40,009 bases of DNA. Source: Escherichia coli. GTDB taxonomy: Bacteria > Pseudomonadota > Gammaproteobacteria > Enterobacterales > Enterobacteriaceae. Location of the stretch: NCBI RefSeq assembly GCF_003334765.1, contig NZ_QOWT01000036.1. One strand, given 5' to 3'. Of the stretch, positions 30,235 through 30,478 are shown in pieces (position 1 is the stretch's first letter; every line of letters begins with the position of its first letter). The notes under the pieces were generated by a model, which made no database searches, was not told where the DNA came from, and saw only the letters and a list, made by a program, of their open reading frames with translations. A program made the translations under genes and the position numbers.

Positions 30235-30244
30235 ATTTCCTTCG

Positions 30245-30370
30245 TCTTTCACGCCATAGCGGCGTTGGCGTCGCCCGCTCACCCCGGTCACTTACTTGTG
30301 TAAGCTCCCGGGGATTCACAGGCTAGCCGCCTTGCTCTGACGCGAAATACTTCGGAAATTCACCTAATTC
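30245..30370 (-). repeat. ERIC/IRU (enterobacterial repetitive intergenic consensus) element in the ahpC-ahpF spacer
   Basis: The reverse complement of 30274-30295 is aagtaagtgaccggggtgagcg, 21 of 22 identical to the ERIC2 primer sequence. 30297-30318 gtgtaagctcccggggattcac is 20 of 22 identical to ERIC1R. Outer boundaries are approximate. Confidence 0.75.
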
Positions 30371-30371
30371 T

Positions 30372-30400
30372 TCGGGTGCTGCGGCACCCGATTTTCTTCC
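30372..30400 (+). terminator. Intrinsic terminator-like hairpin downstream of ahpC (partial terminator or attenuator within ahpCF)
   Basis: Stem tcgggtgc (30372-30379) pairs with gcacccga (30384-30391) around a tgcg loop, followed by ttttcttcc. Confidence 0.5.
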
Positions 30401-30478
30401 CCGCACCATGATGCAAGCTGCATCCAGGTAGCCGCAGAGGCCGCTTGCATGATGATGTTTAAAGCCCAGGAGATAAAC

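Follow-up and report, generated by a model that had tools for sequence, protein, structure and literature searches.

The REP stabiliser in the malE-malF spacer is said, after Newbury et al. in 1987, to protect the upstream cistron of that pair. The ahpC-ahpF spacer of Escherichia coli resembles this system, as well as intra-operon terminators and attenuators, in that a strongly expressed first cistron is followed by a stable 3′ hairpin, which protects the upstream mRNA and which only part of the transcripts pass to reach the second cistron. Unlike the malE-malF case, the stabiliser of ahpC is a unique, conserved hairpin of the terminator type, preceded by the repeat (an ERIC or a REP-like sequence). 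The ERIC/IRU/RU-1 repeats were reportedly described by Sharples and Lloyd in 1990 and by Hulton et al. in 1991, and form a 127-bp MITE family found in enterobacteria. In E. coli, low-level hydrogen peroxide is scavenged mainly by AhpC and AhpF, two highly abundant proteins. Unequal output of the two subunits from one promoter is an operon-design question of the textbook type.

Another similar system is the pflB-pflA site, where, according to Gordon, Cameron, and Pfleger 2017 (mBio, PMC5371410), an RNase III cut just past a terminator separates two messages and stabilises the upstream one. The two sites differ in their genes and in that pflA has its own promoter, while a promoter scan of the ahpC-ahpF spacer detected no sigma-70-like promoter for a separate ahpF transcript. 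The same paper lists an RNase III site at the ahpC-ahpF locus itself; it is silent on ERIC, on allelic variation, and on conservation across species. All three elements discussed below are already known, the ERIC as a member of a long-described family and the two hairpins from published mapping at this locus. Here I analyse how the three elements are arranged, how they are conserved, and which of them may set the ratio of ahpC to ahpF expression.

Organization of the ahpC-ahpF spacer

The window is a stretch of 40,009 nucleotides of E. coli DNA (contig NZ_QOWT01000036.1 of assembly GCF_003334765.1). Its gene order around the locus is dsbG, ahpC (29671-30234), ahpF (30479-32044), and uspG. The region from 30235 to 30478 is exactly the 244-nt ahpC-ahpF spacer of E. 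coli K-12, and a sequence comparison showed that its surroundings are identical to E. coli K-12 MG1655. A window position is converted into a K-12 position by adding 609,274. The features are as follows.

29671-30234, + strand: ahpC coding sequence from the ORF list, 187 amino acids, stop codon TAA at 30232-30234; identical to K-12 b0605
30234-30360, + strand: full-length ERIC/IRU repeat of 127 nt, from inverted repeats, RNA fold, a weak Rfam match, copies elsewhere, and alignments
30276-30319, + strand: ERIC central core, the ERIC2 reverse complement followed by ERIC1R
30372-30399, + strand: intrinsic-terminator-like hairpin and U-run UUUUCUU, from a terminator scan, fold, Term-seq 3′ ends, and covariation
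30404-30457, + strand: imperfect 54-nt hairpin, RNase III processing site, from the inverted repeat, fold, Gordon et al. 2017, and conservation
30468-30481, + strand: ahpF Shine-Dalgarno sequence AGGAG (30468-30472) and start codon ATG (30479-30481); the ahpF coding sequence runs to 32044

A sequence-only reading of this DNA had placed an ERIC element, a GC hairpin with a T-run, and a leader stem-loop in the spacer and had proposed that together they could set the AhpC:AhpF ratio. The three elements do lie at the positions it gave, and both hairpins are conserved, beyond chance, in 80 Enterobacteriaceae species. The comparative set consists of the ahpC-ahpF spacers of these species (L004-L083). 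Neither hairpin has an Rfam family, even at permissive thresholds; apart from a sub-threshold ERIC-like match, the search gave only chance hits there. CATGAT and TTGCAT in the hairpin arms were inspected by eye as a promoter and rejected because a partner hexamer at the proper spacing is missing.

A few RNA elements outside the spacer were seen in the same window. An Rfam match to STnc70, an enterobacterial sRNA, lies in the dsbG-ahpC intergenic region at 29433-29526 (+ strand); its score is 42.7 against a gathering score of 40, and about 57 central model positions are absent from the match. A Term-seq 3′ end has been published at K-12 position 638796, which is window position 29522, at the end of the STnc70 match. 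Two other matches exceed the gathering score, namely the rnk leader at 34739-34847 (− strand, 124.9 bits) and the ES036/CssrF sRNA at 865-906 (− strand, 40.5 bits). The ahpF 3′ UTR corresponds to about 32045-32160 of the window; in a Salmonella iRIL-seq paper (PMC10703908), it is cited as a characterised Hfq-associated 3′UTR-derived sRNA.

A terminator-type hairpin and the RNA 3′ ends

The terminator scan identified the hairpin TCGGGTGC-TGCG-GCACCCGA at 30372-30391, followed by TTTTCTT. The stem has 8 bp, including 6 G-C pairs, and is closed by the 4-nt loop UGCG. Its predicted folding energy is −16.6 kcal/mol (z = −4.9), and none of 200 shuffled sequences was as stable. Thus, the GC hairpin and T-run read from the sequence at 30372-30400 are present.

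The hairpin is conserved in a way that preserves pairing. Across the 80 species, compensatory changes were found in 6 of the 7 aligned stem pairs, and 98% of the cells are paired. None of 500 shuffles reached the observed covariation value, and slid controls were 24-41% paired. The hairpin is thus a terminator-type structure kept by compensatory evolution. The tail is T-rich; of the 8 nt that follow the stem, at least 5 are T in 79 of the 80 species. The U-run is short and interrupted; 66 of the 80 species have 3-4 uninterrupted T, as in UUUCAUUCC.

RNA 3′ ends have been mapped here. The curated Term-seq data of Adams et al. 2021 (eLife, PMC7815308, Supplementary file 1) list 3′ ends on the + strand at K-12 positions 639668, 639670, and 639668 for LB at OD 0.4, LB at OD 2.0, and M63, respectively. 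They convert to window positions 30394, 30396, and 30394, which are 3-5 nt into the U-run past the hairpin. The sequence-only reading had named 3′ ends at about 30395 beforehand as a test of its proposal, and the published ends in the three conditions agree with this prediction. Supplementary file 2 of the same paper lists no Rho-termination region in the spacer. In structure and in having an in vivo 3′ end in its U-run, the element resembles an intrinsic terminator. The 3′ end at 30394-30396 is probably made at least partly by termination, given that Term-seq does not distinguish termination from exonuclease trimming.

Probable RNase III processing in the second hairpin

The second hairpin has the arms catgatgcaagc at 30407-30418 and gcttgcatgatg at 30443-30454. 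The positions of this inverted repeat had been read correctly from the sequence, while perfect pairing does not hold, as there is one G/G mismatch (30410 versus 30451). The arms can be extended to 30404-30424 and 30437-30457, which are 21 nt each and 81% complementary. The predicted folding energy of the hairpin at 30404-30457 is −23 kcal/mol (z = −2.5), with the basal stem CAUGAUGCAAGC/GCUUGCAUGAUG. Its minimum free energy structure combines 3 + 8 basal pairs with further inner pairs and spans about two helical turns, as RNase III substrates do.

The status of this hairpin as an RNase III substrate rests on published experiments at that coordinate. According to Gordon et al. (PMC5371410), an RNase III site annotated as "intergenic (ahpC-ahpF)" lies at K-12 position 639695. 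This value, which is a read-ratio peak and not a mapped cut, corresponds to window position 30421, inside the second hairpin and thus inside the element that had been read as a leader stem-loop. The same source reports 3,598 reads there in the rnc mutant against 4 in the wild type, a ratio of 900 that was seen in both replicates. The high read count at 30421 in the rnc mutant also shows that transcription gets past the first hairpin. Purified RNase III also cleaves in vitro, according to that paper. However, the in-vitro template extends from about 30161 to about 30930 and includes the ERIC hairpin; therefore, the in-vitro assay by itself cannot say which hairpin is cut. The paper further gives an ahpC half-life of about 14 min in the wild type and about 6 min in the rnc mutant, the ahpF half-life being unchanged.

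It is very likely that the cut lies in the hairpin at 30404-30457 rather than elsewhere in the spacer, because a cut in the ERIC would strip the terminator hairpin from ahpC and would fit the stabilisation of ahpC poorly. In the main text of Altuvia et al. 2018, a study of RNase III targets, ahpCF is absent. The literature searched offered nothing useful in the way of Northern or monocistronic-transcript data on enteric ahpCF.

A two-hairpin model and the trimming alternative

The spacer is probably, with good confidence, a two-hairpin device for differential expression of ahpC and ahpF, with a mobile ERIC repeat lodged in the ahpC 3′ UTR. In this model, transcription from the ahpC promoter would run across ahpC and the ERIC. 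A part of the transcripts would stop at the GC hairpin and its U-run, giving a monocistronic ahpC mRNA with its 3′ end at 30394-30396. The read-through RNA would fold the hairpin at 30404-30457, and RNase III cleavage would uncouple the ahpC and ahpF segments. The upstream product would be trimmed back to the terminator hairpin and shielded by it, resulting in a long-lived ahpC mRNA, while the downstream product would be an ahpF mRNA with a short leader. The net outcome would be more ahpC message than ahpF message. Of this scheme, the following points are established: the 3′ end, depletion of the hairpin region that depends on rnc, the cleavage in vitro, the effect on the ahpC half-life, and the conservation of both hairpins.

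The proposal that the AhpC:AhpF ratio is set by partial termination and leader structure therefore stands in broad terms, as there are 3′ ends, there is read-through, and the second hairpin affects the relative fate of the two cistrons. The part that does not stand is the role of the second hairpin as an ahpF leader. It is an RNase III site whose measured effect is on ahpC stability; the ahpF half-life is unchanged, and the hairpin leaves the ahpF Shine-Dalgarno sequence uncovered.

The main rival to this model holds that the GC hairpin is no terminator. Transcription would read through fully, RNase III would cut, and exonucleases would trim the upstream product to the hairpin, which would then be only a stabiliser with a processed 3′ end. 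I regard this as unlikely. It draws on the finding that RNase III loss more than halves the ahpC half-life, which means that a large share of the stable ahpC mRNA comes from processed read-through RNA. The shortness of the uninterrupted U-run, just 3-4 U in most species, points the same way, and the authors of the RNase III study themselves propose (PMC5371410) that exonucleases are stopped at the hairpin remaining 3′ of ahpC. However, the 8-bp G+C-rich stem and the 4-nt loop are canonical, a U-rich tail follows directly, and this tail is conserved in nearly all species, although it would be needless for a pure exonuclease block. The 3′ end lies inside the U-run, as intrinsic termination predicts.

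Sequence conservation of the second hairpin

The second hairpin was predicted in 73 of 73 distinct sequences. Across the 80 species, 97% of the cells in its basal stem are paired, and the sequence is near-invariant. Double changes were found at 0 of the 11 basal pairs, 4 of which never vary. Two substitutions in the 5′ arm, at two pairs, are uncompensated (11 and 10 sequences), and the G/G mismatch is turned into C-G in three sequences. The 3′ arm GCUUGCAUGAUGAUGUUUU is almost invariant across at least 20 genera, while the adjoining Shine-Dalgarno region exists in at least three versions. An invariant 3′ arm together with uncompensated changes in the 5′ arm would mean that selection acts on the sequence beyond pairing. 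One species, Lelliottia nimipressuralis CCUG 25894 (L072:1384-1476), keeps the hairpin with another 14-bp stem, CTCATGTAAGTCGC / GCGGTTTACATGAG. In this hairpin, an ERIC-core fragment is inserted in the apical part or loop, and the ATG run of the 3′ arm is missing. Evidence that selection maintains the pairing of this hairpin comes from this one lineage and from the three C-G conversions.

These patterns raise the question of whether the second hairpin serves mainly to control ahpF translation. The 3′ arm would be masked in the hairpin and freed by RNase III cleavage; once exposed, and only then, it could be a single-stranded translational enhancer or standby site, the target of an sRNA or another trans-acting RNA or protein, or the beginning of a very short ORF upstream of ahpF. 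Both this general explanation and the more specific assignment of the 3′ arm as an enhancer, standby site, or trans-acting target seem improbable to me. If the latter were true, AhpF synthesis would depend on RNase III. Besides the near-invariance of the 3′ arm beside a variable Shine-Dalgarno region and the uncompensated 5′-arm changes, the explanation is favoured by an AGG located 8 nt before the first ATG, by the string ATG ATG ATG TTT TAA, which is readable in many genera, and by the frame that the upstream ATGs share with ahpF in Escherichia. However, the frame past these ATGs varies by genus, being closed by a stop after 4 codons, out of frame, or in frame. The AGG is missing in several Citrobacter and Kosakonia sequences, and the Lelliottia sequence mentioned above has neither the 3′-arm sequence nor the ATG run, although it keeps the hairpin. 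The second hairpin stops 11-13 nt short of the ahpF Shine-Dalgarno sequence, in accordance with the distance of about 12 nt first noticed in the sequence, and does not pair with it. No matching Rfam family or reported regulator was found for such a control.

Two further observations concern the same segment. Three consecutive ATGs lie in the 3′ arm (30449-30478, + strand); their in-frame reading in Escherichia would add 10 residues to AhpF. In other genera, an additional T leads to ATG ATG ATG TTT TAA or puts the ATGs out of frame. Since neither the frame nor the stop is constant from genus to genus, a conserved upstream ORF was rejected. In addition, the minimum free energy fold of the E. coli sequence pairs AUGUUUA with UAAACAU (30455-30480), which would place the ahpF Shine-Dalgarno sequence in a loop and leave the start codon partly paired. 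This hairpin enclosing the Shine-Dalgarno sequence was not counted as an element because the underlying sequence differs in other genera.

Structure and family membership of the ERIC

The reverse complement of primer ERIC2 matches 30276-30297 with 1 mismatch over 22 nt, and primer ERIC1R matches the adjoining site at 30298-30319 with 2 mismatches over 22 nt. The sequences of both primers were confirmed against the literature, and the match of the core to both standard primers, as recognised by the sequence-only reading, is thus borne out. The 20-mer core GTAAGCTCCYGGGGATTCAC occurs once in the 40-kb window, against 0 occurrences expected by chance. The whole element at 30234-30360 is an imperfect palindrome of 127 nt, with terminal arms of 27 nt at 74% complementarity and central arms of 14 nt at 79% complementarity. 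Its RNA is predicted to fold into one long hairpin of −44.6 kcal/mol (z = −3.1), and it forms most of the ahpC 3′ UTR.

For ERICs, Table 1 of PMC2229807 lists terminal inverted repeats of short length and a TA target-site duplication at the ends. The present copy has the 7-nt terminal inverted repeat AATTTCC/GGAAATT. On the left, it directly adjoins the TA of the ahpC stop codon, whose TAA is completed by the first ERIC base. The TA of this stop codon is likely to have been the insertion target. The right-hand flank is TCA in E. coli (GGAAATTCA) and TA in several other genera (GGAAATTA). The right-hand TA is thus degraded in E. coli, and in no essential respect does the copy differ from an ERIC/IRU. 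Like other members of the family, the element lies in a transcribed intergenic region and has several diverged copies in each genome; related copies were found at 41,233 places in 5,426 E. coli genomes, with a median of 8 per genome. By its length, its palindromic structure, its core, and its copy number, the element belongs to the ERIC/IRU family, and its TA flanks are only half preserved. The only Rfam match was V_AS5, an ERIC-like Vibrio RNA, at 30238-30359, which is below threshold (22.8 bits against 96). The ahpC-ahpF copy is unannotated in the RefSeq K-12 record. Another copy, 73% identical to the ahpC-ahpF copy, was seen in the spacer of a second two-gene operon, rpsB-tsf, in E. coli KS-NP019 (L084:1201-1317).

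Distribution of the ERIC among strains and species

Is the ERIC a constant part of the spacer? The locus was found in 5,423 of 5,426 complete E. coli genomes, and three spacer alleles of 244, 170, and 128 nt were identified. Their shares are estimates, which are based on coverage classes, on an evenly spaced sample of 30 rows (10/14/6), and on the 1,764 of the 5,426 genomes that have an ERIC copy at 95% identity or more.

244-nt allele (that of K-12): ERIC intact; about 33% of genomes
170-nt allele: internal ERIC deletion of 74 nt, core gone; about 47% of genomes
128-nt allele: ERIC almost wholly gone; about 20% of genomes

The three alleles share identical sequences for both hairpins and for the Shine-Dalgarno sequence.

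In about 35 of the 80 species, an ERIC lies at the same distance from the ahpC stop codon and points the same way. The Salmonella diarizonae ERIC is 90% identical to the E. coli copy, compared with 73% for the E. coli paralogue. Therefore, the insertion predates the split of Escherichia and Salmonella and has been retained. In the remaining species, the stretch that separates the ahpC stop codon from the terminator (the slot) holds deleted ERIC remnants, repeats, or nothing. Two tandem ERICs were found in one species (L029) and an ERIC with a REP-like repeat in another (L076). REP/PU-like palindromes, recognised by eye only, occur in Klebsiella pneumoniae (L023) and in many Enterobacter and Citrobacter sequences, and the slot is empty in, for example, Silvania (L068), where it is 44 nt long. 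The state of the slot crosses genus boundaries; even three genomes named Citrobacter amalonaticus differ from one another. Everything downstream of the slot is conserved in the 80 species. Small repeats have thus landed recurrently in this slot.

The ERIC looks like a dispensable passenger that the device probably does not require, because it is polymorphic within E. coli and is replaced or missing in other genera while the downstream elements are unchanged. The earlier suggestion that it takes part in setting the ratio is accordingly not upheld, as an intact copy is missing in about two thirds of the E. coli genomes, whose terminator and second hairpin are identical. That the ERIC is nevertheless a working part, its long 3′ UTR hairpin altering ahpC mRNA decay or read-through, for example via RNase E, and so helping to set AhpC:AhpF, is doubtful: the shared offset and orientation, the age of the retained insertion, and the Yersinia ERICs, which reviews describe as co-transcribed and as destabilising the upstream mRNA in an orientation-dependent manner with RNase E implicated, would fit such a role, but the allele distribution and the other genera with REP-like repeats or nothing instead speak against it, and the literature on ERIC with ahpC yielded no experiment at the ahpC-ahpF locus and no measured ERIC effect on ahpC mRNA.

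Implications

The answer to how ahpC and ahpF come to be expressed unequally has largely been published, namely an internal 3′ end and an RNase III cut that stabilises the ahpC mRNA. To this, the present analysis adds a few modest points: the terminator stem covaries, the RNase III hairpin is unusually invariant in sequence, the site next to the ahpC stop codon is a hot spot for repeat insertion, and E. coli has three spacer alleles. The three natural spacer alleles could serve as a ready-made test of the effect of an ERIC on expression.
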